Shown: piece after piece, positions 18,340 to 43,578 of the stretch
Numbering within the stretch: the stretch's first letter is position 1
Layout of the letters: the number at the start of each line of letters is the position of its first letter
Assembly (NCBI GenBank): GCA_008632985.1
Contig: QPGO01000111.1
Coordinates: 62,001 to 126,000, forward strand
Reading direction: 5' to 3'
Length of the DNA stretch: 64,000 nucleotides
Source: Psammoneis japonica
Lineage: Eukaryota
Made by a program: the position numbers and the translations under genes
Notes under the pieces: generated by a model
What the model was told of the DNA's origin: nothing
Databases searched by the model: none
Seen by the model: the letters and a program-made list of their open reading frames with translations, nothing else

Positions 18340-20820
18340 TGGATGGCAAGACAACTGGAATTTCTGATTTTTTTGCGCTGGAAACTCCATGCGTGCTGCA
18401 CACATCACTGTTGAAAATCGGTGACATGACGGTGGTGCATTGCATGACAATGGCAATGACAGCGACATGTCCCAGAGTCTTTTGTCATTGTGGACATTTG
18501 GTTTGTCAAGTTTGAGAATGTGTTTGGCAATGAAAGTCCCCAGGAGCAATCTCCGTTCGAAAGCAAAACGTCACACCAACACAGAGCTCTGTTTCCAACC
18601 TGTCGCTTTTGTGCATTCATTGTTGAATGATTGGGACTTTGTCAGGGGGACTTTCTTTGCACATTTGTGCTCCAAATGGTGCAGCCGATCATCTCATTGT
18701 GACAAGTGCCCATTGCAAAGTCATCCTGCATGAGCTTGAGAAAAATGTCATTGTCGTCATCGGCGTTGAAGGCAGTTTGTTGCGCAAATCACAAAAAATG
18801 CATGACTGTCATCTGTCTGACATTGCGCAGCTGTGCGCTTGTTGTGCACACACCTTGACAAGTTTCATTCTTGAGGATGGATCATCTAAATGAGGTGCTT
18901 TTTTGGTTGGCTTGTGATTTTGCAATTTTCTCTTGCTTCGCCCGCGTCATTTTGCGATGCCTCTGAGCACCCCCAAACACTTGTGAGTGTGCCCAGCCCC
19001 CACCAGGGCTGTCAGACCTGCATGCGAGCTGCACACTTCAACCTTCAAATGCCAATTGTCAGATTTGGTGCAGTTGTCATGTTCGACAATCCACTGTTTT
19101 GTCCAAAATCACACTTCTTGTGGGAGACAAGCCACAGCTTTCCAGGAAACACCAACAGTTGGCACTTGACTGGCTGTGGACATGTCTGCAGTCATCAAGC
19201 TAAAGATCGCGCATGGCCACAACCATTGCCAGCACATTCCATGATGTCTTTCGACACGTTCCAGATGCAGGTGGGAATCTGTGTGACATTGGGCCCGCAG
19301 AATTCTGTGTGCGAGCTCTGCAGTGAAATTGTCAGGCAATTGACACGCCAATGATCACCAACAGAAAATGAGGCAATTTTGCAAATGCACAAACTCGTCC
19401 ATGATTGAAGCGCATCAGCTTCTGCTTGGCCAGGTGCGTTCTTCAGACATTGAAGAATGCACCTGGCCTGTTTGTGTTTCTGTGATTTTGTCAAATGAAA
19501 CGTCTGGGGTTTTGCAGAACAGCAAGTCTGGAACAATTTTTTGAAATGTCACATGCAGAAATGCACGTGCAAAACATGCGACGGATGACAAAAAACAATT
19601 GTGTCACACATCAGTGCTGCGAGCTCCCACCTGGGCCTGGAACACATCTTTCAAAGGGACAAAGTTCGACCCATCGTTGAAAACATTTTGTTGGCACAAG
19701 TGCGCGCATCCAGTGTGAGAAATCCGGGTAAAAGCTCGCCGAAACAGACCTCATCTGGACAATCCACCCTTGAGGTGGTTGCAGAACCGTGAAAGAGATG
19801 ACAAGATGATTCAACTTTCTGACGTGCTCCAGCCGCACGTGAACCAAATCGTGCACAAAAACCACATCTGCACAATTTTTGCATGGCCCCCAACTTGCGA
19901 TCGATCTTTCACCACCAAAAGCATGGATTTGTGCAAATGCAAATGTTTTGCAACACCAACAAGACTCGTGTGAGTGTTGCAATGTCATTGTTGTTGTGCC
20001 ATCTCTGTTTTTCATTGCGCCAAAAGATTCGCAATGCAACGGATGATTTTCGGTGAAAATGTTGCCGTTGTTTGGATGTCACCCAAGTGCATCTTTCTGT
20101 GATGCTGCTTGGCAGGTTGTCCACCTGCAAATAAATCTCAGCACAAATCTGCTGAGGAAGTTTGTGACACACATCCCATGAGGACTTGAACACCCCAAAA
20201 AAAACTGTCTAAATGCACACACTCTAGAAGCCCATGAAAGTCAATCCGTGCAAGCATTTTGTGTGAAAATGCTGCACGCACTGAAAGACACACAAATTGC
20301 GCTCAAAATCGATTGTCATTTTGTGCATCACCTGGGACTGGAGCACGTCTTCTGATTTTTTTTGCACTGGAAACTTTGTGCGTGCTGCACGCATTGTCGT
20401 CAAAAATTGGCGACATGATGATGGTGCGTTGTCACAACGACATCGACAACAACGACGTGTCCTTGACTGTCTGGGCATCATGGACACTCAGTTTGTTGAG
20501 TTTAAGAGTGCACTCAGTCATGAAAGTCCCTGGGAGAAGCCTCCGTTCGAAAGCAAAACATCACGCCAACACCAAGCTCAATTTTTCGACCATCGTTTGA
20601 TGTGCTCGATCATGGAACGATTGAGAGTTCATCCGGGGGACTTTCTTGACGCACACGTGTTCTTAAGAGCATCATTGACACAGTCATCAAGTGCCAGTTG
20701 CGAGGTCTTTCTCTACGAGCATCGCAAACGTGTCATCGTCATCGTCGGCGTTGAACGGCAATTTGTCGTGCAAATCGCGAAAATGGCACGGACTGTTGTC
20801 TTCCGACATTCAGACACTGA
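18340..20820. repeat. Dispersed direct repeat, ~480 bp (18340-18825 and 20335-20815)
   Basis: Both copies share tctgattttttt..gc.ctggaaact, tgaaagtccc...ctccgttcgaaagcaaaac and gtcatcg.cggcgttgaa. Confidence 0.75.
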
Positions 20821-24090: not shown

Positions 24091-24279
24091 AGAGAGCTTC
24101 ACGCCCCTTGGCGTTGCTGAAGAGGTCTGTTTTGCAATTTTGCCTTTGTAGTGCTGATTGCAGCCTTGAAGGCGCTTAGCGATAATGTGTGCATGTATTT
24201 GATGGACGAAACCTTGGACGAACAAATCACGGGGTATATTTTTTAGTGTCCATAATATATTTACTTTTTACTTCGAGAG

Positions 24280-25370
24280 AACTACCTACCTCGTTTGTCT
24301 AATTTAGCTACTTTAGTATTTACACAATTGCCACAAATTATCAGTTGAGTCGCTGTCGCTTGCGACTGCCCGGGTCGTCGCTTGCTGACGGAACCGCTCC
24401 TAATGCATGAAGCTCTTCAAAGCACCGTTCGACGTCTCTCAAATTAAATGGCTTGGGGAGAAAAACACAAGACCCACTTGCTTCCGCCTCTGCTTCAAAA
24501 TTGTTTGCCACGTGGGCCGTGACAAAGGCAACTTTGGGTATCGGGTGGCCACCTTGCCGTGCCACAATCAAGCGGCACGCATCAATCCCATCCATGACGG
24601 GCACTTGCATATCCATCAGTACCACGTCGTATGGCTTGGCGGCTTCTTGATCGACGGCCTTTTGTCCATTGTCCACAACATCAACCTGCGTGACACTCAG
24701 TCGCTTGAGCATTCGAACAATAATCTTTTGATTAATGGTGTTGTCTTCGGCGACAAGCACTCGAAACTCCGAAAACGGAACTGCTTCGGTAGGCAAAGGC
24801 GGAATAGAGGCTTCCGCGACAGGAGGCAAAGTCGAGCTATCAAACAGAGCAAGCATGGAACGCATCAAGACGGACGGAATCATTTGCGTAAAGCATCGAA
24901 AGTGCCCGTGCTTCTCTTCCACACAATACTTTCGCCCGACTGTAACCAACACGGTTGCAGTCTTGGCTGCCAAGTTCCGATACGGATCAGCCTGAAACAG
25001 GTCTTCGTCGCAAAAGCAAATGTACCGTCCCTTCAAAACAACACCGCTAGCGACATGGGCATCCATGTCTCGCATGCACTTGAATCCGCGGTGCTTGATA
25101 TCGTACTGGGAGCAAATCTCTTGGAACCGGGCAGCTGAATTGCGATTGGAACCATCGTTCGAATCCTTCAGCACAGAAAAGATGGTTACATTCTGCATCT
25201 TGCGCGTCATGTCCGCAACGTCAACAGGAGTACCCGAGAAGGGAAAATCAACGACAAACTTGGACCATTCGCCCTTTTTGCTATCCACCGAGATTGACCC
25301 ACCAAGCGCTTTGACAAGTTTTAGGGTAATCGACAATCCGAGGCCTGTGCCACCGTAAATTCTTTCCGTG
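24280..25370 (-). pseudogene. 1,091-bp tandem duplicate of the 3' end of the hybrid histidine kinase (end of HATPase + receiver domain + 3' UTR)
   Basis: 24280-25370 aligns with 25371-26461 at high identity. It has no HisKA domain or 5' end of its own, and carries changes such as AEDNA>AEDNT and MDMQM>MDMQV. Confidence 0.85.
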
Positions 25371-25431
25371 AACTATCTACCTCGTTTGCCTAATTTAGCT
25401 ACTTTATTATTTACACAATTGCCACAAAATA

Positions 25432-27944
25432 TCAGTTGAGTCGCTGTCGCTTGCGACTCGCCGGGTCGTCGCTTCCTGACGGAACCGCTCCTAATGCATG
25501 AAGTTCTTCAAAGCACCGTTCGACGTCTCTCAAATTAAATGGCTTGGGGAGAAAGACGCAAGAACCACTTGCTTCCGCCTCTGCTTCAAAATTGTTTGCC
25601 ACGTGGGCCGTGACAAAGGCAACTTTAGGTATCGGGTGGCCACCTTGCCGTGCCACAATCAAGCGGCAAGCATCAATCCCATCCATGACGGGCATTTGCA
25701 TGTCCATCAGTACCACGTCGTATGGCTTGGCGGCTTCTTGATCGACGGCTTTTTGTCCATTGTCCACTACATCAACCTGCGTGACACCCAGTCGCTTGAG
25801 CATTCGAACAATGATCTTTTGGTTAATGGCGTTGTCTTCCGCGACAAGCACTCGAAACTCCGAAAACGGAACTGCTTCGGTAGGCATAGGCGGAGTAGAG
25901 GCTTCCGCGACAGGAGGCAAAGTCGAGCTATCAAACAGAGCAAGCATGGAACGCATCAAGACGGACGGAATCATTTGTGTAAAGCATCGAAAGTGCCCGT
26001 GCTTCTCCTCCACACAATACTTTCGCCCGACTGTAACCAACACGGTTGCAGTCTTGGCCGCCAAGTTCCGATACGGATCAGCCTGAAACAGGTCTTCGTC
26101 GCAAAAGCAAATGTACCGTCCCTTCAAAACAACACCGCTAGCGACAAGGGCATCCATGTCTCGCATGCACTTGAATCCGCGGTGTTTGATATCGTACTGG
26201 GAGCAAATCTCTTGGAAGCGGGCAGCTGAATTGCGATTGGAACCATCATTCGAATCCTTCAACACAGAAAAGATGGTTACATTCTGCATCTTGCGCGTCA
26301 TGTCCGCAACGTCAACAGGAGTACCCGAGAAGGGAAAATCAACGACAAACTTGGACCATTCGCCCTTTTTGCTATCTACCGAGATTGACCCACCAAGCGC
26401 TTTGACAAGTTTTAGTGTAATCGACAATCCGAGGCCTGTGCCACCGTAAATTCTTTCCGTGTCAGCACTGGCTTGATGAAAAGGGAGAAAGATGTTCTTG
26501 AATTCTTCCTTGTTGATTCCGTGGCCATGATCAATCACGATGAATCGAAGCACCTTGTCTGCGTTGTTGACTGGTAATGCAGACTCTTGGGTGCTATCAT
26601 CATCGCACGTAGTGCCGATCGAGTCTGATGAGGAGCGACGAGGGGCTTTGTGAAAGGGGCATCTCGACGGTATATCCCCATTGGACTCATTGTCCAGCCG
26701 CTCCGCGTCATTCATTTTTTCGGGGGCCTTTCCCTTGTCATCATTCCCTAGATTGCATAGTTGTACCTTGAGGTCCATTACACCATTTTCTGGGCTAAAC
26801 TTAAGCGCGTTTCCCAAAAGGTTGTAAAGAATCTGTTGAAGGCGTCGGCTGTCGGTGTTTACGAACTTGGGGAGCAGTGTATCAAACGTTGTACGGAGTT
26901 TCACGTTCTTCTCCACGCCCTTGTTTTCAATGGAATGCACAATGGTATTTATTGTGTCTTGCAGGTTGCTTTCTTTCATGACAATGTCCACGTTCCCTGA
27001 CTCTAACTTCGAGTAGTCCAAAACGTCATTGACCACGGTAAAAGCAGGTCACCACTAGCTACAATCATACCCAGACTTTCTCGCTGTTGGGGGTTCAGCG
27101 GAGTGTCTCGCAGGAGACTTGATAGCCCAATAATACAATTCAACGGAGTCCGAATCTCGTGGCTCATACTTGCAAAGTGCTCTAGCTGCTGAGCTGATGC
27201 TCGAACAACCTTGCGATTTGCGTCTTCCAGGCTCCGATTCGCCTGTTCTAATTCTTGCGTCCGCTCCGTCACCTTGTGCTCGAGCGTGTTGATCAAGCTT
27301 ATGTTTTGCTGGATCTGGAAATAGGCTTGAATGAGGTTGCTGCAAGTGACCGTAAATGGCTCTAAGAAATCTATATCAGCTTGTGAATACCCGCCGGGTT
27401 TGTTGGCTATTCCTACCATGCCGTTCATTTCTCCTCCCTTCTTTGTAAAGAATGGGATTCCCAAAAAGTGGTGAAGCGGTGGATGTCCTTTGGGAACGCC
27501 ACAGGCACGAGTGTCTGTGGAAGGGTTGTTACTTATGACACATGCCTTGGTTGTCATTACCTTTCCAAACAAAGTGTTCATGTTGTAAAATTTGAGACCC
27601 GAGTCGACATTCTCGTCATAAAAGGTTCTCGTTGCTGCATCCCAGGCAATGTTGGTAATCGCGTGTGTCTGTAAGAACATTGTACCATCCTGGTCATGCT
27701 TGACTTCTCCAATGAAGCCATACTCACTGTCCATGAGTTTGAGCAGGCCTTCCAGCAAGCACCCAAACACAACTTTGGGACCCTCGCTTTGCAAATACTG
27801 TCGCTGAACACGTGAAATTATGTCCAGCAAGTTCAACTTTTGAGCATGAGGTCGAGATTCTATCTTGAGTGCGGATAGCGAATCTTTTTCTTTTCTGATT
27901 TTCATAGCCCCATAATTTTCTCCTTGTAATGGGAAAACACCCAT
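25432..27944 (-). CDS. Hybrid sensor histidine kinase (GAF - HisKA - HATPase_c - receiver)
   Basis: GAF-like ([26 protein letters not shown]), H-box [14 protein letters not shown]-box [17 protein letters not shown]-box [34 protein letters not shown]. One 1-bp frameshift at ~27038 joins ORFs 27003-27944 and 25432-27036. Confidence 0.93.
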
Positions 27945-28578
27945 TCTTTCAGGATCTCCTCGGTTGATTCATCCGGCGGAGAGTCTGGCCCGCTCAGGTC
28001 GAGTTGCAGCTCTAGATGATCGATTTCGGCGAAGATCATCGTTGGTTGAAGTAGCGTGTATGGTAGCAGAGATTTTAGGCTTCACGGGAATAGATCCCTG
28101 TCAGGAGACTAACTTAGTGTAAGAAGAGTACTGTAGCGAGGGAGTTATCCTGCAGGTATTGGCCATTCGCGTTGAAGTCAAGCAGTTGGCAACTGCGGCA
28201 CCAACTGACGCTGCAGATCACGCCACGCCGCCGATCGCTCGCGTGCCGGGTGGCGGGAAATTGTGGATGTCTGTGCCGCGTCACACGGGTTTGAGGATAC
28301 TGAGAGACATCCTGTAGCATCTGAGTAGAAATGACAAACGGAGAAATTAATATTGTCCGAAGTCTCATGTTCAGTAGGTAAGTCGTAGAAATTATACCGT
28401 GTGGTACACAACCGTAGATTTCCACGTATGCTTTCTTACAGTATTCTACAGTAGCAGACAGACCGCCACTGCGATTTTCCTTGCATGTGGTGACACCCAA
28501 GTTGCCGACTGCCGCCGACATCAAAGATGCATCTTGTCGATACAGCGAAGAGCAAGAGGGTGCAGCACATATTGCACC

Positions 28579-29035
28579 ATGAGTTTAGCCGAGAAAGCAA
28601 CAGAACTTGCAGAGAAATGGGGAGCTTCGCTCACCAAGGGTGCCAAGGACGGAGATTTTTCGGCTTTTGAAGAGCTCTTTGTGAAGGATGAGCCGGTTTA
28701 TGTCGTTCTACAAGATTCCCAAGGAAATGAAATTGAATGCATTGTTGAAGATGATGGAGACGAGAATTCCTTCACTTGGAAGGAGCCAATTGATTTATTC
28801 AAGAAGGACACAAGCGCTGATGTGAACCATTTCAAAACGGAAAGCGACTGTCTCGGAGTCTTGGGCGATCGCATGATTGTGGAATCTTGTCGTTTCAACA
28901 AGGATGGCAAAATCTACCTGGCAGCCTTCTCCATTCTAACTTTGAATGAAGACGGAAAGGTCAAAGAGCACGAAGCCTTTTCGGAGCCGCAAGCAGAAAA
29001 ATTTGATGGCTGCTTCTTCTGCAAAATTAGCTCAG
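28579..29035 (+). pseudogene. Hypermutated paralog of 38328-38783 (SnoaL/NTF2-like)
   Basis: Near-identical to copy B but with many TA>CA/TG changes, a frameshift at ~28997 and the stop TAG changed to CAG at 29033. Confidence 0.88.
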
Positions 29036-29082
29036 CTTTGATGCTTGGTTTTAAAAATTCTCTTTCTTTCGCATTTACATTG

Positions 29083-32000
29083 TACAATGGCCATCCAGCA
29101 GTTCCTCACATCCAGCCACGGTTGCACAACAAGTGGGATTTGTGCAGCAGAATTCGTTGAAACACACTGTGCGACGTCAGCAAGAACATGTGTCTGGCAC
29201 GCATCCCACACATCTGTTGCACTTGGCAGCAGATCGAGACATGAGGCGTCACAGTCGTACAAACGTCGTATGGTCGTAGTGGGTAGAACCGACTTCAACT
29301 ACGAGACACATCATCGCACATTGAACTTCCACAAGATGTCGTTCCCGCTGACGTTCACAACCTCACCGGTGTGATGCCGCTGCTGTTTTGGCAGCACATC
29401 CCAATGCAGAACGCACGAGCGAACGATGACGTGTCAAGCAAATCGAGACGAGCGATCTACAGCGTGTCGGGTCCGTCAATCATGCACGGAAGTTTGCTTC
29501 AACCCTCATTTTTCATGAGATCTGAACTTTTGCAAAGGAAGACTCTCCAGCCATCTCGACACAAAGCATCGCCAGTTGCAGCTGAGACAATGTCTGCGGG
29601 GACCAGAGTGCACTGGTCGCAGAGTCTGCAGAGACCGGGAAACACCGGTTGCAGATTTGTCACATCGCGTTCATTGTCATTCATTGTGCTCTTGATGTGC
29701 TGAAGATTTGTTGCACACACTCGTCTGCTGAGTCCAGAAAACACTGGAAGTGGACCCTGCAGTGACTGGGAACACCAGTTGCAGGTCGGATCATCCACCA
29801 TCCATTGATCATGTTGACTTTACTCAGATTGTTCTCATTGCAAGTCTCATGGGTCGTCGTGTTATCTGGTGTGCACCTGTTGCTGCGTTGTTGGTTCAAC
29901 TTGTCTTTGCGCAGTGTGAGCCTGCCGCTCCACAAGCTGTCTTATGGATGACAGCAACACCAGGCACCGAGACAACACAAACAGACGTTTTGAGAAGCTT
30001 TGTTGCAGGAATGGAAACGAGTGCGTCCCTTGGGTTTGTTTGGTGTGTGACAGATTGTCAAAACCGTCTCAGACTGCTCGACTTTCTGTCAACAAATTGA
30101 AAGAAGCCAGACACCTGTTGACTCCATCTGAATGGAACCAAGTGTCGGAAGACCTGCACGATTGTTGTCGCATCGATGACGACCACATTCCACGGGATTG
30201 CCGATGGATTTCCGACCTGTCACTTTCGCCAAGAGCTCGACACATTGTTCCGAACGACAACAGAAGGTCTGAAGGATTCACTTGTTGCAGGCCTTGTAAA
30301 AGGAGTCTCTGCACTGCTTCCATGCCTCCACACGCAACAGCAAATAATTGCTGTTTTGGAACACCACCACCTGAATTATCGTGTCTTACCGAAGTGGAAC
30401 CAGCTTTTGTTGACACCTGTGAAAACACATGGCTGCTGCTTCAGTTTTGTCGGTGGTGAACAGAAGAAACTGCAAGGCAGTCTTTCCTGTTACAAGATAA
30501 ACACAAAGAGCATCGCCCGCACCATTGTGCACTTTGACGTGTTGAACCTTCATCAAAATGTGGTTGTGTTGGCATCCGGCAAAATGACACCAGAGCAAAG
30601 GCGAATGGCCAGACAAAAGAACAAAATCAGGACTCACTGTGTGATGAGAGCACTGGAATGGCTCACCCATCACCACGAGAATTAGATGAATCAAGACATC
30701 GATCTAGAGGAAGTGCGAAGTAATTTACAGAATCCAGTTTTAGTGGACAACAGCAGTTCAGACGAAAGCGAAAATGCAAACATTGAAACCACAGAGTCCC
30801 ACAGTGTTTGTTTCCCCGATGGCACCGTTTCTTCAACAACTGGTGGACAACGCAATTTAGACAACTTCAAAGACTTGGTGCACGATGCAGCTGCAAGCGG
30901 TTTTGACATTGAATTCAAAGCTGATCTTTTGAAAGAATCAGTCAGTGACTTCAAGGACAACAACCTGGCAAATGCTTGCTTGCTGCAATTTCCTTGTGGG
31001 CGTGGCGGCATTGATGAAACAAGAATGAAAGAAGACGGGAGTCTTGCCGACTGTGCAAATCTAGCACATTGCGCAGATCACTTGGCCCGCATTTCTCAGC
31101 CCCATTTCCACAAGCAACTCTTTGTTCTGACCCTGTGCAATCTGACTGTGAAGCAACGAATGGTGCACAGTGCTGGATGGAAAGCAAGAGACAAAAATCA
31201 AGCCAGACAATTCTCAAATGAACTGACACAAGACGACGTCGACCGTGCCATGTGTGACAGACAGACCGGTGAACGCAGGAATTGCGCATTGGGACATCGT
31301 TTCTTGAGTGCAGTGGATGTGGTGTCGGCATCTGTTCCACATGCAAATGAAGCAGCAAAAAAAATGAGAAGAAATGCTGAAACCCACCAACACCACTTTG
31401 GACAACCTGGAGCATTTTTAACGACAAGCCCCGATGATGCCAATTCCTTTTTAGTTCAAATTTATACGGACATGCTCATCGACAAAGGCAGAGATGTGAC
31501 AGAAATGTCGGATGAAGAACCAACCGAAAAGGCTGAGGCAAGAAACGAGCTTCGTGTGGAGCACCCGGGTGTCACGGCTTTTGCATTCGAAATGTCATTG
31601 GAAATCGTCATAGAAGAAGCAACAGGATGGGACTTAAAAAGGAATTCACCCAGAGAAGATTTTGAATTCTACATGGGGAGACCCTCCGCTTTCACAGCTG
31701 CAATGGAAGAACAAGGTAGACTCTCGGCACACGGTCACATTCAGGCATGGTTTGAAGACACAAACACAGCAAGAGACAATCTGCATTCTGACAACAGAGA
31801 TTTTAGGCGTGATGGTAAAAGAACACTGTCCAAACTGACCAGTCGGATCTGCACAACTGGGTTGACATGTTTAAAGGACCCAACCCAACAGATGACAGCT
31901 GAGGAAAAAGAGAAACACATGCTCGGACTGAAAGCAACCCAATTGCCATTCATGACAAACAATGCGACTGCAGGACACAAGCTTCAAGGAAGCGGTGTCG

Positions 32001-32749
32001 ACAATGTGTTTGTGCACAGCTGGAGCCACACACAAAACTGGGCACATGTCATGCTCTCCAGGGTTAAGACCAGAAATGGTCTGCATCTTCGGCAACCGCT
32101 GAAGAGAGATTTAAGTCTGTGCAGACTGCCGGACGGGTGCAACACCCTGCTCCGGTTGATGGAAGGAAAAAGTGTCACACACTTCACCAACGAACAGCAT
32201 GATGACATTTTGCAGTCCAATTGACACACAGAACATTTTGACACTGCATGTGGGAATTATTTCTACATTTTGGAAAATGTTCCAAGCTTTGTGCGCGGGC
32301 TTGCAGGCGTGCCCGGCAACAACCGATAGAAAACAAAGGGTCCAATCTAATGGGTCGATGTCAGTGCATTGTTGCAATGACAGACACACTCAGCAACCAG
32401 TGATGCACAACGTCAGGACAGTTCTCTTGTCATCCACCATAGAACGATCACACCAGAATTGTCAAAAAGGGGAAACCCACGTCTCTTCTTGTGGCACATC
32501 CACACACGAATGCAAGAATTAAATCGCCATTTTTTGACACAACATTAAAACACAAATGTGGAATTGCGTCGCACATTAATTAATTGCGAACCCATCATTT
32601 AAGCGTGCGAATTTTTTAAAAAATGATTGGTGGCAAGTGAAGATCAAAGCTCTAAAATTTGATGCTCGCGCGCATGGCAATCCAAACCAGCCCGGGTTCC
32701 ACACCTCCTCACTTCGTGTCCAGAGTTCCCACCACAAAGGAGGAACCAA
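29083..32749 (+). mobile_element. Internally deleted Helitron-like rolling-circle transposon
   Basis: Absent from duplicate copy B. Encodes CxxC..MPPHATANN..GTPPPEL (DUF6570-like), LLQFPCGRGG, Rep motifs GQPGAFLTTSPDD and EEQGRLSAHGHIQAW, then jumps to PIF1-helicase C-terminal motifs AGHKLQG and HVMLSRVKT. Confidence 0.85.
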
Positions 32750-32796
32750 TGCTCCTGTCGTTTGTACCTTTCTTGCAAACATCACAGTCCCGGCCT

Positions 32797-33420
32797 TCAA
32801 TGACGACGACGGCAGGCACGGCGGGCCTGTTGGCGGCATCCCAATCCGGTCATGGCTCCTCCAGCAGCTCCGGTGGCTGCTCCCATCTTGGCTCCTTTTC
32901 CGGCGTCGCCGGCAATGGCCCCAGCAACTGCTCCAACGACAGCACCTCTTAGAGCTCCTTGAGCAGCTCCCTTGACAACGTGAGGTTCATTTCGATGTTG
33001 AGGAGGAGGTGCATGTTTCTTGGCAGGAGGGGGCACAGGCTGCGGAGGCGGAGGAGGCGCGGCCTGAGGTGCGGGAGCTTCTTGCTTGGGTGGCTCGCGA
33101 TTTTTGAGCTTTTTGTTTTCTGCCTTGAGTTGAGCATTCTCTTCTTCGAGTTCCTTGACACGTTTTGACATTTCCGAATCTTCACCACCCCCACCACCTT
33201 GAGCGAGACTTTGCACAAAATCAAGTCCCTTTTTTACTCTCTTTGCATCGAGGCCAGACAATCCAAGATCAACTTTCATGTCCTCATCTGACAGCTCTGC
33301 CAAAAGGCTTCCGTCAACCGAATTCTCACGAAAGGCATCTTGCTTCTTACCGAGACCAATGGCAACTAAGAAGAGACAGACTTCATTCACAGTGTAATCT
33401 TTCGGCTCTTTCACTGCCAT
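32797..33420 (-). pseudogene. Mutated paralog of the SAM/glycine-zipper gene (frame still open)
   Basis: Aligns to 38883-39500. Terminal TAT>CAT (Y>H), several CG>TG/CA changes. Lies inside the mutated domain; functionality unknown. Confidence 0.7.
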
Positions 33421-33659
33421 GGCTGGCTTTCTAATTCTTTGCGTCGCGAAGCAGTGCCGCGCGGGGATCGACGGCCAGTCGCGCGTCTCTCTGGGGGGAG
33501 TGAGTGCGAGTGCCGGCAAGTTTGTCCCGCATTCGAAATTCAAAAAATCTGGTCAGATGCATGACGGGTGGGTGACAGGCGAGGTGAGACGATGAGATGT
33601 GATCGATCGCGACGGGAAACTGGAGATTCTCTCGAGTGGCTTGTGCCTCGGATGCACGT

Positions 33660-34720
33660 GAAAAAGAGGAACGGCCATGAGCTTAGAGGCAGCATTTTTC
33701 AGAAAATTGAGGAAGCCATCAACACAAGACAGGAGATCTTTTGCGCCCTCGGAGAGAGATTGCTTTCAAAATGATTTTGGGGACAAGCCAAGTCAGATTG
33801 CACAATGGTTCATGATGACTGCCAACATTCAGCACCTGCACTTCAAGGTGGTGAGTAAAATAAAAATGAAGATGGCAGCATGATTGCAGGGAAAATGTCA
33901 TTTCGATGGGCTGATTCCACGAGCCTCAGGTGTCAAGGAAGTTCGACTCTGCAGTTTGCCGTTTGTGACACTTCGCTCTGTTGTGTGAAAATCAGTGAAC
34001 CAAACAGAATTTGGCCAGACTTTTTAGTTGGTTTCCAGCTCAGCAAGGGACAATTTTGTCTGACATTCATGCCAGCAACTCATCCTGTTCAGATCAACAG
34101 TGAACGAATGGCCTGTGATCATGCCTCAGACACATCATCCTTGGATTTAAGGAAGAATTCCCCTGAGATGGTCGCTGATGTTGCCACATGTGGGTTGGCA
34201 TTGGTCAAAGTGTTCTCCACCAAAAAAACATGTTGATGCTGCCATGTGCGGATTGGCATTGGTCAAAGCGTTTTCAAACCAAAAAAAATGTCATGCTGAC
34301 ATCAAACAGAGCAATGTGATGCTGGAAGGGGCAACAGGAAAAACGGCAGTGACGATTGACCTTGGATCCAGTGTCCTGCACAGCAAGAGCATGACAGAGC
34401 TCTCTTTTGCTTTTGGACTGGAATGTGCTCCCACAGGCTCCCTCAAGCATGACATGACCCATCTGGCAGTTTCTGTTGTGCATGTGATGACTTCGACAAA
34501 TGATCCACTGAGGGAAGAAGTGACGTGAGCTGGGCTCTCACGTGCCATCAGAAAACCGCAAAACATTGCTTCAATTGAAGAAGGTTGCAAAAGCTTGTCT
34601 GACAGAGGGCAAGAACATTGATGAAATGTGGGAAGAGGCCAAAGAGTTCATAAAAAGCGAATGTGAACATGCGGAATTGCTTGTTGACTTGAGCACATGT
34701 GGCCACGGACAACCCACTCT
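33660..34720 (+). pseudogene. Hypermutated paralog of the kinase-like sequence at 39720-40722
   Basis: CHADIKQSN and VTIDLGS retained. Tyr replaced (GYDM>KHDM, EYG>ECE). Stops, frameshifts and a small internal duplication at ~34175-34290. Confidence 0.8.
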
Positions 34721-35905
34721 GTTGCATGATGAATCAAAGCATGGACCAAACTCTTCCTGTGTCTGTCTGCGCAACTCTTTTGCCATCTGTCAGTGGAGTG
34801 GCTGCCTCTTCACTTGTTCTCCTGTGGTTGTTGTCTCCTTCTTGACTCTCTTGCTCTTTGTCCTGCAGTGTTGCTCTTGCATTGTGTTGAGATCATTTTG
34901 GAGCAATCGTTGTCCTTGTCAGTTGTCTCTGCCAGAATGTTGGCATGTGGTGAAAGAGACAAGTCTGCAAGGCAGGGTCCCAACTTCCTTTTTTCTTGTC
35001 TTCAACTGTGCCACAAAGTCTTCAGCCTTGATGTTGCCCATGCCAGCACCTGCGGGAGTTTTGAAAACTCCATTGTCAAGCCTGGTGCATCTTTCATGAT
35101 CAAGATGCACACCAAGCCGGGTCTGAAATGGTGCTGTGGCAAGTGCATCTGACATTGAGTTGGATGCACTGACTCTCTTTGCCTGCAAGGAGACTGTTGT
35201 GTTGACTTGATGTTCTTGCTTTGTAGCTTGCTTCAATTCATGGGCATTTTGACATTGCTGAAATGCTGTGGGATTGCAGAGCCAGCTTGAACACAGGCAC
35301 CAAAAATGCAGATTGATGCTGTTGCTTCACATGCTCAGAGAGATTGCTTCCTTGTTGCTTGCTTTGCATGCACGCATTTGCATCTTGCAAATGACAAAAA
35401 GCACAGCACTGTTTCTACAGAAGAAGTTCTTCTTGTTGAGAGAAGCTGCTGTGTTGTCAACAACAGACCAGACTGTGCTGTCATCAAACTGCTTCATTCC
35501 ATGAGTCACTCTGCTCTCTGCAGACCAGCTCTTGCATCATGAAATCACAATTGTCCAACCTGTCAAAGAAGCTCCAAGTTTTCATCTTCTTCATCTTGGT
35601 GGACTTCTTCTGACTGCAGCTGAGTCATCAAATCTTTTGCATCCACCAAGCATTTTTTACAAAGCACTGGCAACTGACACTGTGCTGTGGACAGAAGATG
35701 CTGAAGTCATGCCACACTGCCGATTGTGAGCGACACACCAAAAATTGAAAGATGCTGCTGAGAGATTTCCTGCAGGGCCCTGCTCTGGCTGGCACCTGAG
35801 AGCAGACCCAACTCAAACTGTCTTGGACAGAAGGTTGTGTGGATGAATGAGAAAGTGCAAAATGTGAGCAGCAAAAATGACCGCCACTGTGATTTTCCTT
35901 GCATG

Positions 35906-38213
35906 CAGCAGCTGCGCCACTTTTCTTGTTTGTCCTCGGCGGTGATCTTCTAAGCTGGTGGGCACAATTCAGGGCCAGGCAATCCAAGCAGGAGTGGAGT
36001 GGGCTTTGCTGGTGCACAAACTGCACTTCTCCAAAAACAAACCCAGGCTGGACAGCAAGGGGGGCAGAGGGCAGGAGAGGTGGGAGTGTTGAAAACCATC
36101 TGACCGGCTTGCTGTTGTTGTCTCAAAAAGAATGAGAGAACAATGGCCGGATGGAATGAAATCCCAAAGAAGTTCGAGCACTTTCAATGGAGTTGGGAAT
36201 CTTGCCTTGCAGATTGCTCAAGGACAGCAGCTGCACCGCTTTTCTTGTTTGTCAGCTTTCCTCGTTTGTCCTCAGCAGCAATCTTCTAAGCCAGTGGGTG
36301 CAATTTATGGCCAGGCAATCCAAGCAGGAGTGGAGCGGGCTTTGCCAGCGCACGAACTGCACTTCTCCAAAAACAAACCCAGGCTGGACGGCAAGGGCCT
36401 CCAGCCACCTCCATGTGCTGTGCATGTGCTGCAAATGGCACAGTGGAGGCAAGTGATCTTGGGTGGGAGAGGTGGGATCACATGGTGGACGCGTTCCAGC
36501 CCTAGGTGGGAGCTCGTAGTACTGACGTGTGACACAAATAATTTTTATCATCCGTCGTATGTTTCGCACGTACATTTCTACGTGTGATATTTAAAAAAAA
36601 TTGTCCAGACTTGCTGTTTTGCAAAGCCCCAGACGTTTTACATGACGCATTTATAGAAACAATAATGCGCCAGTTACATTCTTCAATGTCTGAAGAATGT
36701 AACTGGCTAAGTAAAAATCGATGTACTTCCATCATGTGCGAGTTTGTGCGTTCGCAAAATTGCCTCATTTTCTGTTGGCGAACATTGACATTCTAATTAC
36801 CGTATAATTTTACTACGGAGCTCGCACGTAGAATTCTACGTGCCCAATGTCACACGGATTCCCACCTACGTCTGGAACGCGTCGGTGGGCTGTGGTGATC
36901 ATGGCATGTCAGCGGCAAGGGGAACTTCAGCACTGGGATGAAGGACAAAGTTGCCACAATGATGGGCTCTGCTTGTGGGTGGAGCCATTGGAGCATTTTG
37001 TCAGATTGCCAGCGGCCCAAGAGACAAATGATGTCAGTGTCCACTTGAGCACACACAGCAATCCCATGGCACCTGCGGCTCGAAGGCAACATGCAGAGAC
37101 AATCAGTGGGAAAAAATCCAAACCCTTGGTGAAAACATGCTGACAGGGATGTGTCAGGAAGGATGCCAAAGGCGTGCAGATGAGCAATGTGGCAAATTGC
37201 TGCTTTAACAGGGCAGAGCTGAGGGTGGCCGGAGAGACCGAGGCCAGTGACCTCACCACATGCGCCACTCTTCTGAGTGGCTCGAAAGCAACATGATTGC
37301 AGCTGGCATCACGTCATCACTCAACACACATGCACCGGCTGGTGCAAGCTGCATGAGTTTTGTGGGATGTTGAGTGACTTGGTGTTGGTCATGTGCAAGG
37401 TTGCCAACTGTGCCATGGCAATGGCCGTCCCATGGTTGGGGATTTCCCAAGACGGCAATGGGGCAAGTCGACACGCAGTGCAACACTTGAATCTGTCCGG
37501 GATTGTTGACAAGTCCCAGTGCACAGCAGTGAGTGATCACAGAAACAGGTGCATCATGCCCCAATGCGGCAGTGACACGGTCAAATGACGCAACCGGGCT
37601 GTGTGTGATTGCCCGTTGACCACAGCTGCTGCAAAATCCGCCATCGGTTTCACGTGCACTCCATGGTTCAGATCCAATGCTGGGGTCCCATGAAAGTCTG
37701 TGCGGGTCCTCATGGCATGTGGAAGTGCCGGCCTGGCCATTGGGGGACCCTGACAGGGTGCATCAGGCTGTCTGCCGGCTTGTGCTGGTGATGCAGTGCT
37801 TGTTGGGGGATCGCCGCGCGGCTTGTGGCGGCTGTTGCTGCACTGGTGGCTGCCCTGGCGGTGCTCCCTGAAGTGGCACCTGCACTGGTGCAGGGTGCAC
37901 CAGGGGCTGCTTGGCGTTCTTCGGCGGTGGCTGCCCTTGTGCGGGTGCTCCCTGATCATCAACCTGAAGCCCACCTTGTGGGTTGCTTCAGTGCACATTT
38001 GCAAGTGTCAACATTCTGCCATTCAAACGAGAAACCAACAGCGGCGGGAGGCATCCTGCATCAGAACAACAGCGTTAAAAACTATCTAACCAGCTTGCTG
38101 TTGTTGTTTCAAGAAGAATGAGAGAACAACGGCCGGGTGGAATGAAATCCCAAAGAAGTTCGAGCACTTTCAACGGAATTGGGAATCTCGCCTTGCGGAT
38201 TGCTCGAGGACAG
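35906..38213 (-). mobile_element. Degenerate non-autonomous tyrosine-recombinase (Ngaro/PAT-like) element with split direct repeats
   Basis: YR C-terminal relic LRAAGAMGLL/CAQVDTDIICLLGRWQSDKMLQWLH at ~36970-37110. In element orientation the repeats are A1 (38073-38213) - ORF - B1 (36226-36398) - A2 (36088-36228) - B2 (35906-36063). The empty site is visible in copy A at ~28487. Confidence 0.75.
36492..36870. repeat. TA-retaining island with two palindromes; inverted homolog of 19340-19645
   Basis: 17-bp-arm hairpin at 36669-36707 and perfect 20-bp palindrome gcacgtagaattctacgtgc at 36824-36843. The reverse complement of 36492-36790 aligns with 19345-19645. Confidence 0.8.
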
Positions 38214-38327: not shown

Positions 38328-38783
38328 ATGAGTTTAGCCGAGAAAGCAACAGAACTTGCAGAGAAATGGGGAGCTTCGTTCACCAAGGGTGCCAAGGACG
38401 GAGATTTTTCGGCTTTTGAAGAGCTCTTTGTCAAGGATGAGCCGGTTTATGTCGTTTTACAAGATTCCCAAGGAAATGAAATTGAATGCATTGTTGAAGA
38501 TGATGGAGACGAGAATTCCTTCACTTGGAAGGAGCTAATTGACTTATTCAAGAAGGATATAAGCGCTGATACGAACTATTTCAAAACGGAAAGCGACTGT
38601 CTCGGAGTCTTGGGCGATCGTATGATTATGGAATCTTGTCGTTTCAACAAGGATGGCGAAATCTACCTGGCAGCCTTCTCCATTCTAACTTTGAATGAAG
38701 ACGGAAAGGTCAAAGAGTATGAAGCCTTTTCGGAGCCGCAAGCAGCAAATTTGATGGCTGCTGCTTCTGCAAAATTAGCTTAG
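38328..38783 (+). CDS. 151-aa acidic protein, probable SnoaL/NTF2-like fold
   Basis: Intact ATG-TAG ORF with normal composition. N-terminal helix + FEELF and C-terminal LTLNEDGKVKEYEAF pattern resemble the NTF2 superfamily (fold is inferred). Confidence 0.8.
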   Translation: MSLAEKATELAEKWGASFTKGAKDGDFSAFEELFVKDEPVYVVLQDSQGNEIECIVEDDGDENSFTWKELIDLFKKDISADTNYFKTESDCLGVLGDRMIMESCRFNKDGEIYLAAFSILTLNEDGKVKEYEAFSEPQAANLMAAASAKLA

Positions 38784-38882
38784 CTTTGATACTTAGTTTT
38801 AAAAATTCTCTTTCTTTCGTTTTTACATTTTACTCCTACAGTAAAGTTTGTCGCTTTCATACAAATATCATATTTCCGGCCT

Positions 38883-39500
38883 TCAATAACCACGACGGCG
38901 GGCACGGCGGGCCTGTCGGCGGCGTCCCGCTCCCGTCATGGCTCCTCCAGCGGCTCCGGCGGCTGCTCCCATCTTTGCTCCTTGTCCCGCGTCGCCTGCA
39001 ATGGCACCAGCAACCGCCCCAACGACGGCACCTTTTGCAGCTCCTCCCGCAGCTCCCTTGACCACGTGATGCTCATTTCGATGTTGAGGAGGAGGTGCCT
39101 GTTTCTGTGCGGGGGCGGGCGCAGGCTGAGGAGGAGGCGCGGCCTGAGGTGCGGGAGCTTCTTGCTTGGGTGGTTCGGGATTTTTGAGCTTGTTGATTTC
39201 TGCCTTGAGTTGAGCATTCTCTTCTTCGAGTTCCTTGAAACGTTCTGAAATTTCCGAATCTTCACCACCACCACCACCTTGAGCGAGACTTTGCGCAAAA
39301 TCAAGTCCCTTTTTCACTCTCTTGGTATCGAGGCCAGACAATCCAAGATCTACTTTCATATCCTCATCTGACAGCTCTACCAAAAGGCTTCCGTCAACCG
39401 AATTCTCACGAAAGGCATCTTGCTTCTTACCAAGTCCAATGGCAACTAAGAAGAGACAGACTTCGTCCACGGTATAATCTTTTGGCTCTTTCACCACCAT
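38883..39500 (-). CDS. SAM-domain protein with coiled coil, Pro-rich linker and C-terminal glycine zipper
   Basis: YTVDEVCLFLVAIGLGKKQDAFRENSVDGSLLVELSDEDMKVDLGL (SAM) and GAAGGAAKGAVVGAVAGAIAGDAGQGAKMGAAAGAAGGA (glycine zipper). Confidence 0.88.
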   Translation of the reverse strand: MVVKEPKDYTVDEVCLFLVAIGLGKKQDAFRENSVDGSLLVELSDEDMKVDLGLSGLDTKRVKKGLDFAQSLAQGGGGGEDSEISERFKELEEENAQLKAEINKLKNPEPPKQEAPAPQAAPPPQPAPAPAQKQAPPPQHRNEHHVVKGAAGGAAKGAVVGAVAGAIAGDAGQGAKMGAAAGAAGGAMTGAGRRRQARRARRRGY

Positions 39501-39719
39501 GGTTGGCTCTTTCTAAGAATTCTTTGCAAAAACGCGTGGATTATAAATATGGCATCGAGATCTTTCGCCGCGCGCATCAGTCGCGCTCGCGTCGGGGGGA
39601 TGCGTGATGCTCAATGCGTGTGGTGCGTCGTGCGTCATGATGGCTGGGAGGTGATAGACGATGGTGACGGGAAGCTGGAGATTCTCTCGAGTGGTTTAGG
39701 CATCATTGTACTGGTACAC

Positions 39720-40722
39720 ATGAAAAAGAGGAACGGCCATGAGCTTAGAGGCAGTATTTCAGAAAATTGAGGAAGTCATCAAGAGAGATCTTAGATCTTA
39801 CGCTGTCGGAGAAGGATTGCTTTCACAATTTTGGGGACAAGCTAAGTCAGATTGCGCAAGGGTTTATGACGATTGCCAACATTCAGCGCCTTCACTTCAA
39901 GGTGGCGAGTAAAATAAAAACGAAGACGGCAACACGATTGCAGGGATAATATCATTTCGATGGGCTGATTCCAGGAGCCTCAGGTCAAGGAAATTCGACT
40001 CTACAGTTGCCGTTTATGGCACATCGCTCTGTTCTGCGAAAATTAGCGAACCAAGCAGAATTTCGCCTGAAATTTCAGTTGGTGTCTAGCTCAGCGACGG
40101 TCAAGTTTGTCCGACAGTCATGCCAGTAATTGATTCTGTTCAGATCGATAGTGAACGAATGTCGATGATCACGCCCTATTACCCGCTAGACGTATCATCC
40201 TTGGATTTGAGGAATTCCCCTGAGACGGTCACTAATGCTGCCATGTGCGGATTGGTATCGGTCAAAGCGTTTTCAAACCAAAAAATATGTCATGCTGACA
40301 TCAAACAGAGCAATATGATGCTGGAACGGGCAAGAGGAAAAACGGCAGTGACGATTGACCTTGGATCCAGTGTTCCACACGGTGAGAGCATCACGGAGCT
40401 CTCTTTTGCTTTTGGACTGGACTGTGCTCCCACAGGCTCCCTCGGATACGACATGACCTGTCTAGCAGTTTCCATTGTGCATACGACGACTTCGATAAAT
40501 GATCCACTGAGGGAAGAAGTAACGCGAGCTGGGCTCTCACGTGCCATCGGAAAACCGCAAAACGTTGCTTTAAAGGTTGCAAAAGCTTGTCTGACGGAGG
40601 GTAAGAACATTGATGAAGTTTGGGAAGAGGCCAAAGAGTTCATAGAAAGTGAATATGGAAATGCGGAATCGCTTGTTGACTTGGAGTACATATTGCCACG
40701 AACGACCTATTCCGTTGCATGA
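39720..40722 (+). pseudogene. Protein kinase-like sequence; C-lobe open (40120-40722), N-terminal part interrupted
   Basis: Catalytic-loop-like HADIKQSNMML and DFG-equivalent IDLGS. Upstream frames contain stops/frameshifts. Confidence 0.65.
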
Positions 40723-41514
40723 CGAATCAAAGTAGAGGGACAAACTCTTCCCATGTCTCTCTACGCAACTCTTTTGCCATCTATCAGTGGAGTCGCGATC
40801 CCTTCACTGGTGCTCCTGTGTTTGTTGCCTCCGTCTCGACTCTCACGCTCTGCGTTCTACGACTTTGCTCGTGCATCGTGTTGAGATCATTTGGGAGTAA
40901 TCATTGTCCTTACCAATTATCTCTTCTAGAACAACAGCATACGGTGAAAGACACAAGTCTGCGAGGCGTGGTCCCAACTTCTTTTTGTCTTGTCTTCTAC
41001 AATACATAATTCTTCGGCCTTGATACAACCTTTGCCAGCACCTGCTGGAGTTTAAAACTCTATCATCTAGCCTAGTGCGTCCTTCATGATCGAGATGTAC
41101 AATAGCTTGGTCTATGAAATGGCGCTACGGCGAGTGCGTCCGACATTGAGTTGGAGATACCAACTATCTTTGCCTCCAAGGAATGTTGTGTTGACACAAT
41201 GTTGCTTCGATTCATTTCGATTCATGGGCATTTTGACGTTGCTGAAATGCTCTTGGATGATGGAGCCGGTTCGAGCACTGGCGCCAAAACGCGGATTGAC
41301 GCCGTTACTTTAAATGCGCAGAGAGATTGCTGCCTTGTTGCTGACTTTGGGAACACGTATTTGCATCTTACAAAGAACGAAAAGCGCAGCACTGATTCTA
41401 GAGAAGCTCTTATTGTTGAGAGAAACTACTGTTTTGTTAATATCCAGACTGCAGTATCATCGTAGTACTTTTTGGACAAGTCATTCTACTCTCTAGACTA
41501 GTTCTTACATAAAA

Positions 41515-43578
41515 TCACAATTGTCCGACCTGTCGAAGAAGCTCCAAGTTTTCATCTTCTTCATCCTGGTAGACTTCCTCTAGTTGTAGCTGAATCAAAT
41601 CCTTTGCATCCGCCATGCCATTTTTTTTACAAAGCACAGCGTTGCATGCGCTCTTGTACATTTCTCCGCCGTATTCACTAGACACCAAGCTCCAAAACGA
41701 GTACAGCTTCTGGTTTGTTCGTTGCACGTACATGAGAATCATGTTCAAGGCTCTGGCAGCCTCCAACACAATGACCGTCTTTTCTGCAAGGACCGAATGA
41801 TAAAATACTTGAACCAACAAAGCAATCCCCGACTTTACTCGTATGCTACCAACTTGGTCATGATTCCTATTGGTTGAGTTGGTCGTTGATTCTTCCGTGG
41901 CGTTTGCAATCATCTGAGTTCGAAGCAATGCGATTCCCTCGGATGTTTGACAGTACAAAATTGAAAAGAGACTCAGCAACTCCACACACAACGCATCGAG
42001 TCCATAATCGTCAGCCGCGTTTGCGTCACTTAGATAATCCCCGAGAACCCTATAGTCCATAATGTCGAGAATCAATGCCAACAGTCGACGGGAGTAGTTC
42101 CCGTTCCCATATAAATCCAAGAATTCCTTTTGATTTGACAGGACGAGCTTCTTCATTACATGAAAAGCACTCGTGCAAAGGTCCATGGCCTCTTCAAATT
42201 GCGCAGAAGCTAGATCAATTGTGGCGGCACCAGATACGCTTCCCTCGTACAGGGCACGATGAAAGCGGTGTTTCGTCTTCTTGTTTAGGCATGAATGAAA
42301 GAAAGGCTCCAACAAGACGCACATGATACATTCGCCGCAGTAGCTGTTCTTGTCGCAAAAGATGCCTTGCTTTTTCGGAAAGTAGATGTCTTGCCACCAC
42401 CTAATTGAAGAGTCGTTGGATGAAATCAACAAGGATAGAATTAAAAGAGATTCGCGTGCCAACTTCAAGGAGCTATCCTTGTCGCCGACGAGTGCCTGCT
42501 TGACAAAACCAACGAGCCTGGATATCACGTCACGACTTGTGTCCACTCGATACAGAGCATTCGATGTAGCGCTACCAGTCATGGAAGCGTCAGAGCCCAG
42601 CAGTGTTTGCGCGAGTTGTCCCAAACCATTCTCGCTAGACGATATCTCGCCGTCCTTGACGAATCTTATGCGACTGCGCTTTCTTGATGGCCTTGCTCGC
42701 ATAAAGTCATCTCGTCCGGGTTTGCTCCACAGCAAGATCTGATAGAAAACTTTAAGTGCTATGACTTGCTCTGTCTGGTTCTGGAGACACGATTGCGTAC
42801 GCTGAATGATCTCCCAGACAAAATCCAACTCTGAAATGGTATTGCTACACTGTCTGACATGGGACAAAAACTGGTATAAATCTTGCAGTTTACTGTCAGT
42901 AACGTCCCGAGGAAGTATCGTTGAAAGAATATGAGAAGCGAGTCGTTCGACAGTCCCATAATCGCGACGAGTAGCCTGTATTGGAACGTGATGATGAACA
43001 ACGATTGTTCTCGTCTTTGTAACGACACGAGGAGGAGGCGGAGTAGGTGTAGGTGGTAGAGCAGCAGCAGCGTTTGGTGAAACTGAGTGACTAATCAATG
43101 ACGCATTGGGATGATGCTGTTGGTGTTGCTGCTGCTTTTGGTGCTGTTTGAGTCTCGCATGAGCGAGATTAGCTTCTTGCTGAGCGCGACGCAATGCCTC
43201 CTGAGTTTGATGCAATTTCTGTCTTGATTCTTCTTGTACCATTTTGACGGAATGGCTCGTTTCTGCCTGAACCGTCGCCAAGGTAGCTGATAATTCAAAG
43301 ACCTGATCATCTTTTGCGACGAGTTCCAATCGTAATTGTTGAATCTAGAGAGAGAAACAAACATACCTGAGTACACAATGTCGAAAAGCAGCGAAAAAAT
43401 GCCGTTCGTGAAAACATACCTGTCGTTGTAGTTCTTCCTTTTCGCGCTTATCAGCATTATCATAGGAAGGAGGGATCAAGGGAGGATGATTAGAAGCTTG
43501 TTCGTGATAGCCATTTGTTCCGGGCGCGGATGAAGAGCCGTCGGTAGTCCACGCCATTTTGTCTTTGGACTGTTGCAT
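41515..43578 (-). CDS. Uncharacterised ~660-aa protein, N-terminal coiled coil and helical C-terminal region, 2 exons
   Basis: Exon 43420-43578, GT-AG intron 43345-43419 (cag|gtatgt...ctctag|att), in frame with the long ORF ending at 41515. Normal codon composition. Confidence 0.85.

Follow-up and report, generated by a model that had tools for sequence, protein, structure and literature searches.

One of two paralogous copies of a small host gene in the window (the whole 64,000-nt stretch of DNA analysed here) reads CA or TG at half of the TA dinucleotides that its partner, about 9 kb away, retains. We consider it probable, at roughly 0.6, that this copy (copy A) straddles the left edge of a silenced block, about 9.3 kb long, in which TpA and CpG dinucleotides decay according to position. 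The block would extend roughly from 28.79 to 38.07 kb and comprise, besides the remainder of a tandemly duplicated host segment, a Helitron-like insertion, debris of repeats and a young MITE. Of copy A, the final 300 bp would lie inside the block and the first 230 bp, on the promoter side, outside. Two mutational processes would act in this block by position, whether the DNA belongs to a transposon or is host-derived: a fast, TpA-specific A>G change (T>C on the other strand), which turns TA into TG or CA, and a slower decay of CpG to TpG or CpA. For the chemistry we infer a DNA adenine deamination by an ADAT/TadA-like enzyme, as proposed for Bigelowiella natans, and for the targeting silent chromatin, with CpG decay probably reflecting 5-methylcytosine; the Helitron-like insertion may either have drawn the border into the gene or have landed at a border that already existed.

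At the level of single bases the observation holds, as does its direction, and the pattern is highly non-random. Polarity, TpA specificity, one-sidedness (copy A changed, copy B not), sharp domain edges and concurrent CpG decay are all directly visible in the data, and a weak point is the contrast between the 5' and 3' parts of the gene, which rests on four unchanged sites (p=0.09). The pair amounts to a natural experiment, in which one sequence is present both within a mutagenic domain and, 9 kb away, outside it, with outgroups to supply the polarity, and it points to a TpA mutator that is aimed by position, outruns CpG decay and can rewrite a host gene.

The gene pair and the direction of change

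The two copies are located as follows:

28579..29080, + strand: copy A, a small gene of the NTF2/SnoaL/ketosteroid-isomerase fold (by alignment to copy B; fold predicted from the model of copy B)
38328..38783, + strand: copy B, the ancestral-like reference, 151 residues plus a TAG stop at 38781-38783

A local alignment pairs 28505-29085 with 38235-38833, and in its ungapped core (28554-29085 against 38303-38833) the copies are 95.5% identical. A Pfam search with both copies returned no family; the nearest database relatives of the gene are labelled 'ketosteroid isomerase-like', and the top PDB matches of an AlphaFold model of copy B (pLDDT 81, pTM 0.72) are all NTF2-like, SnoaL-like or KSI (E about 1e-5, TM 0.4-0.6). 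On the basis of this model, the host gene product is predicted to adopt the cone-shaped alpha+beta fold of the NTF2-like, SnoaL and ketosteroid-isomerase proteins. On its 5' side copy A shares a promoter region with a divergently oriented histidine-kinase gene; a promoter and terminator scan of 28300-29300 yielded 0 sites, its models being of bacterial type and inapplicable to a eukaryote.

As assembled, copy A carries one extra base in an A-run at 28997, which shifts the frame so that it reads through. Contig data on depth and differences come from three runs, representing one sample and one study and all used as contigs, of which run X1 is probably the window's own sample and serves as a check of the assembly, not as independent biology. 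The extra base is absent from the sole X1 contig that covers the spot, and the frameshift may be an assembly error. Once the base is removed, copy A has an open frame of 153 residues with a TGA two codons past the former stop, and the change of that stop from TAG to CAG at 29033 extends the corrected frame by two codons only.

The copies differ at 23 of 529 aligned bases. Eleven of the 22 TA dinucleotides of copy B read CA (7) or TG (4) in copy A, while each of the 11 TA sites of copy A is shared by copy B, which gives a polarity of 11:0 (sign test, p=0.001). Although TA accounts for 8.3% of positions, it takes 11 of the 23 substitutions (binomial p=7e-7). At CG sites, 2 of the 20 in copy B have become TG or CA in copy A, and one of the 19 in copy A is TG in copy B. 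The changed TA sites are 28787, 28809, 28811, 28822, 28828, 28872, 28879, 28969, 29033, 29043 and 29047, and A>G and T>C changes are intermixed along them on both strands. An earlier note on this DNA had estimated about 11 such changes relative to 38328-38830; the count is indeed 11, every example listed there is present, and 28822 and 28872 are additional to its list. Among their coding effects in copy A are two Tyr>His replacements, Met>Val, Leu>Pro and stop>Gln.

The direction of change was set with nine outgroup proteins, 45-55% identical, which were aligned to both copies; a metagenome scan for a closer outgroup found no relative. The informative residues are (residue; copy B; copy A; outgroups):

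70; Leu; Pro; Phe in 9 of 9
78; Ile; Thr; Leu in 9 of 9
84; Tyr; His; Tyr or Phe in 9 of 9
101; Met; Val; Met in 7, Leu in 2
111; Glu; Lys; Glu in 6 of 9, Lys in none (a CpG>CpA change)
131; Tyr; His; Tyr in 1 of 9, the others Val, Phe or Leu, His in none
18 (non-TA site); Phe; Leu; Leu in 8 of 8, matching copy A

Outgroup proteins also terminate at most three residues from the stop of copy B, in the frame of copy B. Since six residues and the C-terminal frame and stop support copy B, copy A is the derived one at the TA sites, and the direction TA>CA/TG given in the earlier note stands; agreement of the outgroups with copy A is confined to residue 18, a non-TA site.

The reverse polarity, a RIP-like one in which copy B would have undergone CpA>TpA and copy A would be the unmutated sequence, involves the same CA/TG versus TA classes as fungal RIP, and residue 18 of copy A, not of copy B, matches the outgroups. 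However, it is contradicted by the six residues at which the outgroups side with copy B and by their C-terminal frame and stop, by the repeats of the window, which are TA-free and not TA-rich, and by the Tyr codons of a Copia reverse transcriptase that have turned into His or Cys (see below), and copy B is otherwise undegraded. We reject it as extremely improbable.

The mutated block, the insertion and the duplicated segment

Along copy A the changes are distributed over two parts:

28554..28786, + strand: unmutated 5' portion of copy A, all four TA sites retained, three ordinary substitutions
28787..29047, + strand: mutated block of copy A, all 11 changes including the stop TAG>CAG, 11 of 15 TA sites changed

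Written in gene order, with U for an unchanged and C for a changed site, the 22 TA dinucleotides give U U U U C U C C C C C C U U C U C C C U U U. The four 5' sites at 28570, 28586, 28699 and 28709 are unchanged, as are those at 28796, 28915, 28937, 29028, 29052, 29076 and 29083 within or beyond the block. The earlier note placed all changes from about 28786 toward the adjacent Helitron and described the 5' TAs as spared; both statements hold, but seven TAs in or beyond the block are spared as well. Its reading of the pattern as a gradient is not borne out as stated: changed and unchanged sites are not distributed differently along the gene (Mann-Whitney p=0.79), the 5' versus 3' split of 0/4 against 11/18 gives p=0.09 (Fisher; best-split permutation p=0.088), and the three sites closest to the insertion (29052, 29076, 29083) are intact, two of them in the favoured TAC context (see below). 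At the 3' rate of 11/18, finding 0 of 4 has a probability of about 0.02, with a split that was chosen post hoc, and 'unchanged at both ends', likewise post hoc, is the sole nominally significant pattern (p=0.0125). Copy A thus displays a block at 28787-29047, not a demonstrable gradient; the case for a gradient is weak, and a 'gradient from Helitron' over-reads 22 sites. Sequence context was considered as the cause of the unchanged sites and rejected, as favoured TAC occurs among the unchanged sites at both ends of the gene.

Beyond copy A, self-comparison and junction alignments delimit a tandem segmental duplication, with paralogon A at 28505-29085 and 32760-35667 and paralogon B at 38235-41637. 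The elements to the right of the gene are:

29086..32759, + strand: Helitron-like insertion of 3,674 bp, absent from paralogon B, multi-copy, TA o/e about 0.2
30122..32224, + strand: reading frames with DUF6570 (30122-30685) and Helitron_like_N (30686-32224), by domain matches
32760..35667, no strand: remainder of paralogon A, of host origin, with heavy TA and CG change when compared with paralogon B
36900..38070, no strand: TA-free right end of the mutated domain, with a sharp edge just before paralogon B
38846..41637, no strand: rest of paralogon B, normal TA and CG content

That a Helitron-like insertion adjoins the gene, as the earlier note had said, is borne out by its DUF6570 and Helitron_like_N domains and by its multi-copy nature. 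The Rep (HUH) domain is present (Helitron_like_N, E=9.4e-11, 42.7 bits against a cut-off of 28.9) with DUF6570 just upstream, and a PIF1-type helicase gave no match in the Helitron_like_N reading frame or in 11 of the 22 other stop-to-stop reading frames of at least 80 residues in the insertion. Being only 3.67 kb long, the insertion is presumably truncated or non-autonomous. Its junctions, read against the empty site in paralogon B, display neither 5'-TC and 3'-CTRR ends nor insertion at A^T, and folding of 32685-32760 revealed no subterminal hairpin better than shuffles (z=0.27); the ends may have been altered by TpA mutation. Depth over the insertion is 773-1633, against about 51-85 in single-copy bins, and corresponds to roughly 14-30 similar copies in the source sample.

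Two further features of the duplicated region are worth recording. A SAM-domain/glycine-zipper gene is present in two intact copies, at 32797-33420 and 38883-39500 (both on the - strand), of which the former, inside the mutated domain, is still open and has a dN/dS of 0.29 relative to its partner. A unit of about 142 bp recurs, in copies that are 87-90% identical and about 165-171 bp apart, at 35920-36397 (right end of paralogon A) and at 38071-38213 (just upstream of copy B).

A comparison of both paralogons by segment gives the following counts (sites of paralogon B that are changed in paralogon A):

Gene: TA 11 of 22, 11 of these to CA/TG; CG 2 of 20
32760-33442: TA 9 of 12, 8 of these to CA/TG; CG 18 of 42
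33604-34245: TA 20 of 23, 17 of these to CA/TG; CG 21 of 32
34246-35667: TA 50 of 53, 43 of these to CA/TG; CG 53 of 65

For the right arm of paralogon A as a whole, changes relative to paralogon B number 68 against 3 in reverse at TA, and 78 against 8 at CG. In the far right arm, CA/TG flips between the copies (10 + 3) fit the expectation that any new TA quickly resolves to CA or TG. The mutagenic process thus enters host-derived, non-transposon DNA, as the earlier note had proposed, and its edge is defined by position. Copy B, which is identical by descent, is untouched about 9 kb away, so that targeting is not by sequence.

The other two claims of that note, a reach of a few hundred bp and the Helitron as the source, fare less well. 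Under such a model, the Helitron would nucleate a heterochromatin-like mutagenic domain that spreads over a few hundred bp and leaves a distance gradient in the gene. All 11 changes do lie in the 300 bp nearest to the Helitron, and the 230 bp farther away have none; the insertion is depleted in TA and present in many copies; the 3' part of the gene and the insertion are alike in their TA and CG loss and unlike the older-looking right arm (CG 2/20 versus 18/42, p=0.01); and leakage gradients of this kind are known from fungal RIP, according to the available part of a study on it (PMC2973834). However, a monotone trend is missing from the gene (p=0.79), where the three nearest TAs are intact, and the load on the other flank increases with distance from the insertion for 2.9 kb. 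The insertion (TA o/e 0.17-0.25, CG o/e 0.65-0.80) is also less depleted than the DNA further right, at 34-36 and 37-38 kb (TA 0.02-0.06, CG 0.16-0.45), and domain edges elsewhere in the window are steps, not slopes (e.g. at 20.7/20.8, 36.4/36.5, 36.8/36.9, 43.6/43.7 and 51.7/51.8 kb, at a resolution of 100 bp). As the insertion is less decayed than these two stretches, the deepest part of the domain, presumably also the oldest, lies beyond the Helitron, and on that side the process extends over kilobases of host DNA. We regard spreading from the Helitron as an unlikely, though not a negligible, explanation.

Our preferred reading of a border inside copy A raises the question of its age. Loss of CG is lower in the gene than in the DNA directly to the right of the insertion (2/20 versus 18/42, p=0.01), while loss of TA is similar in the 3' part of the gene and just right of the insertion (11/18 versus 9/12, p=0.69), so that the 3' part of the gene and the insertion have a common profile of much TA loss and little CG loss. 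Judged from these counts, the profile would fit a late entry of the 3' end of the gene into the domain, maybe after the insertion, but a reset by gene conversion would fit it equally well. The gene pair carries about five times fewer transversions than the neighbouring paralogous segments (5/529 against 31/675, 33/624 and 70/1393), for which a reset by gene conversion or a more recent duplication may be responsible; this complicates the timing of the border's arrival at the gene.

The same deficit (0.9% transversion divergence against 4.6-5.3% in adjacent paralogous DNA) would be accounted for if copy A had been mutated throughout and its 5' part, or the whole island of 580 bp, had then been restored from copy B, yielding a conversion mosaic; that the homology island is bounded by the insertion would agree with this. 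Background differences (non-TA, non-CG) are, however, similar in both parts (3 in 233 bp in the 5' part, 6 in 299 bp in the 3' part) so that nothing suggests that the 5' part was converted separately and recently, and the unchanged 3' end holds three other differences in 39 bp and thus was not recently converted. A mosaic of this kind seems to us improbable, more so than spreading from the Helitron.

TpA and CpG depletion across the window and site preference

The depletion seen in paralogon A is a property of much of the window. Over all 64,000 nt, o/e values are 0.20 for TA, 1.55 for CA, 1.56 for TG and 0.64 for CG. Repeat-rich kilobases reach 0.00-0.08 for TA and 0.1-0.5 for CG, with CA/TG at 1.7-2.1, while the genic stretches at 21-29 and 38-44 kb remain at about 0.5 for TA and about 1 for CG; TA density is 2.9 per kb in depleted zones versus 35.6 per kb in genic zones.

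The Copia reverse transcriptase carries the same signature at the protein level. There are 10 columns in which at least 70% of 20 homologs have Tyr; here six of them read His and four Cys, among them the catalytic motif, which reads CVDD, and Tyr makes up 0.33% of the residues of this reverse transcriptase versus 5.0% in the homologs. The TA depletion of the repeats, their CA/TG excess and these Tyr>His/Cys replacements together lead us to conclude that a TpA>CpA/TpG mutator exists here. Erasure of TA also removes TAA and TAG stops and accounts for the many long overlapping open reading frames on both strands.

Several repeats and duplications may be noted in this context. The Copia-type element (52447-59554) has LTRs of 275 bp that are 94% identical and a frame of 1721 residues at 58-60% GC that is still open, although each conserved Tyr examined has become His or Cys; just left of its LTR, a pair of direct repeats of 223 bp (51723-51945 and 52224-52446, 97% identical) lies in a TA-normal island. 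A Gypsy-type element at 44491-49667 (reverse transcriptase, RNase H, integrase), with LTRs of 379 bp that are likewise 94% identical, has TA o/e values of 0.03-0.27 and an intact YIDD motif. Within the GAF/histidine-kinase/receiver gene region, a tandem duplication at 24279-26461 (96.9% identical) exhibits an ordinary substitution spectrum, with 2 versus 2 changes at TA, and is a useful internal control.

One element stands apart from its surroundings:

36493..36884, no strand: MITE-like element, young and very high-copy, with normal TA, inside a TA-free domain

It measures about 392 bp, has terminal inverted repeats and normal TA and CG content, and its depth is 23,000-52,000 against about 55 for single-copy DNA; an Rfam scan of 36200-37200 gave no match. 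An old copy at 19252-19643, which is TA- and CG-decayed, is 82% identical to it, and between old and young copy there are 26 TA>CA/TG changes with 0 in reverse, and 13 CG>TG/CA changes with 2 in reverse. The polarity thus receives independent confirmation from this MITE pair and from the Copia reverse transcriptase. Retention of TA in a MITE inside the domain means either that the element is very young or that the process is not continuously active.

These data also bear on an RNA-level origin, by ADAR-like A-to-I hyperediting fixed via a retro-copy, or on relaxed constraint in a dying paralog. ADARs typically prefer a 5' U, as the available text of a recent preprint has it (10.64898/2026.01.13.699255), and copy A is altered at conserved residues. 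However, A>G and T>C changes occur mixed together on both strands, the signature also extends to non-coding host DNA, to a MITE and to a DNA transposon, and copy A retains promoter-side homology and its genomic neighbours and hence is not a retrocopy; relaxed constraint, for its part, cannot yield 11:0 at one dinucleotide. The mixture of strands and the non-retro targets lead us to reject the ADAR and retrocopy model, and we consider this whole group of explanations scarcely credible.

Not all TA sites appear equally prone to change. In four paralogous segments, the changed adenine was followed by C, in preference to the adenine on the opposite strand, in 27 versus 6 paired choices (p=3e-4), and TA surviving in depleted zones is T[A]A in 55% of cases versus 22% in genic DNA (chi-square p=5e-20). 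Paired choices and the surplus of surviving T[A]A give an order of preference that is roughly TAC, TAT > TAG > TAA. Such a site preference, as read from the sequence comparisons, would suggest that an enzyme is at work and not chemistry alone. TadA/ADAT naturally acts on A34 of tRNA, which follows the near-universal U33 and, in tRNA-Arg(ACG), precedes a C. By analogy, a TAC preference would fit a deaminase of the TadA/ADAT family.

Relation to known mutational systems

The named relatives of the histidine kinase and the H+-pyrophosphatase of the window are all diatoms (Cylindrotheca, Nitzschia, Seminavis, Entomoneis, Epithemia, Amphora), with up to 90% identity between the H+-pyrophosphatase and its diatom relatives. 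A literature search, conducted largely at the level of titles and beginnings of abstracts, retrieved no report of TpA-directed hypermutation in diatoms, and for TpA-specific hypermutation in general it retrieved only a 2026 preprint on B. natans. According to the available text of this preprint, two integrated viral regions acquired de novo A>G mutations, restricted to TpA, in mutation-accumulation lines, the rate per site and generation being about 6e-7 (Mettrop et al., bioRxiv 10.64898/2026.01.13.699255). The same text describes TpA-poor, CpA+TpG-rich clusters and proposes an ADAT2-like deaminase (10.64898/2026.01.13.699255); TpA-poor genes are enriched in reverse transcriptase and DDE domains, and some of the coding sequences are likely of host origin (10.64898/2026.01.13.699255). 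It contains, in the part available, no mention of CpG, flanks, Helitrons or diatoms (10.64898/2026.01.13.699255).

As far as that text permits comparison, the two systems share TpA>TpG/CpA changes that are restricted to defined regions and one-directional (here 11:0 in the gene, 68:3 in the right arm and 26:0 in the MITE), a long-term TpA depletion with CpA+TpG enrichment, and an affected reverse transcriptase. They differ in the host, which is a chlorarachniophyte there and a diatom (stramenopile) here, and in the depth of depletion, with a TA o/e of 0.2 for the window and 0.00-0.08 for its repeats against 0.45 for the NCLDV region reported in the available text. Compared with the foreign targets described there, the affected DNA here consists of Helitron-like, Copia, Gypsy and MITE elements plus about 3.2 kb of duplicated host DNA. 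Moreover, TpA loss is here coupled to CpG decay, and the signature is read from sequence and is not a measured mutation rate.

The effect on a host gene has its closest parallel in RIP leakage into adjacent single-copy genes of Leptosphaeria maculans and Neurospora crassa, for which a gradient is documented in the available part of the source (PMC2973834). There, too, a repeat-directed hypermutation hits host genes beside degenerated transposons, in dependence on proximity and with many amino-acid changes (PMC2973834, same part). The chemistry is the opposite, as RIP converts C to T at CpA and thereby makes TpA, while here TpA is destroyed. RIP furthermore needs a duplication and mutates both copies, whereas here only the copy in the domain is mutated and TA and CG in copy B are normal; and the gradient documented for RIP leakage in that part of the source (PMC2973834) is not demonstrated here, with 22 sites and p-values of 0.79 and 0.09. 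Similarly, the CpG decay known from methylated transposons resembles the CG class of changes (CG of paralogon B to TG/CA in paralogon A, 78 versus 8; repeat CG o/e 0.1-0.5), but explains this class only, since in the gene 2 of 20 CG sites have changed against 11 of 22 TA sites.

Tentatively, and at somewhat less than even odds, we propose that diatoms possess a chromatin-domain-targeted defence by DNA adenine deamination, carried out by a TAC-preferring, ADAT/TadA-like enzyme, that erases TpA about twelve-fold in silenced DNA, ahead of CpG decay and by position, not sequence, with collateral editing of host genes at domain borders (Tyr>His/Cys and stop-codon loss in paralogs). If true, this would be a mirror image of RIP leakage and make diatoms the second eukaryotic supergroup lineage with such a system. 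If general, it would extend to diatoms a defence that is in print so far for one chlorarachniophyte (as a preprint), and would explain long spurious open reading frames in diatom repeat DNA by erased TAA/TAG stops. The site preference (TAC>TAT, TAG>TAA), the sharp borders and the candidate enzyme class offer testable handles.

Finally, two observations concern differences between the window and the contigs. At 32866-37578, among the 23 listed of 49 differences between the window and contigs of single-copy depth, 10 oppose CG to CA/TG, three oppose TA to TG/CA, and a CA/TG flip occurs once. Such differences may be allelic products of the TpA and CpG processes, and as a sign of ongoing mutation in the domain the TA- and CG-type differences are only suggestive. 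One-base indels relative to contigs of run X1 or X2 occur at 27907, 27909, 28047, 28997, 30405 and 33493 and are typical of homopolymer assembly errors.
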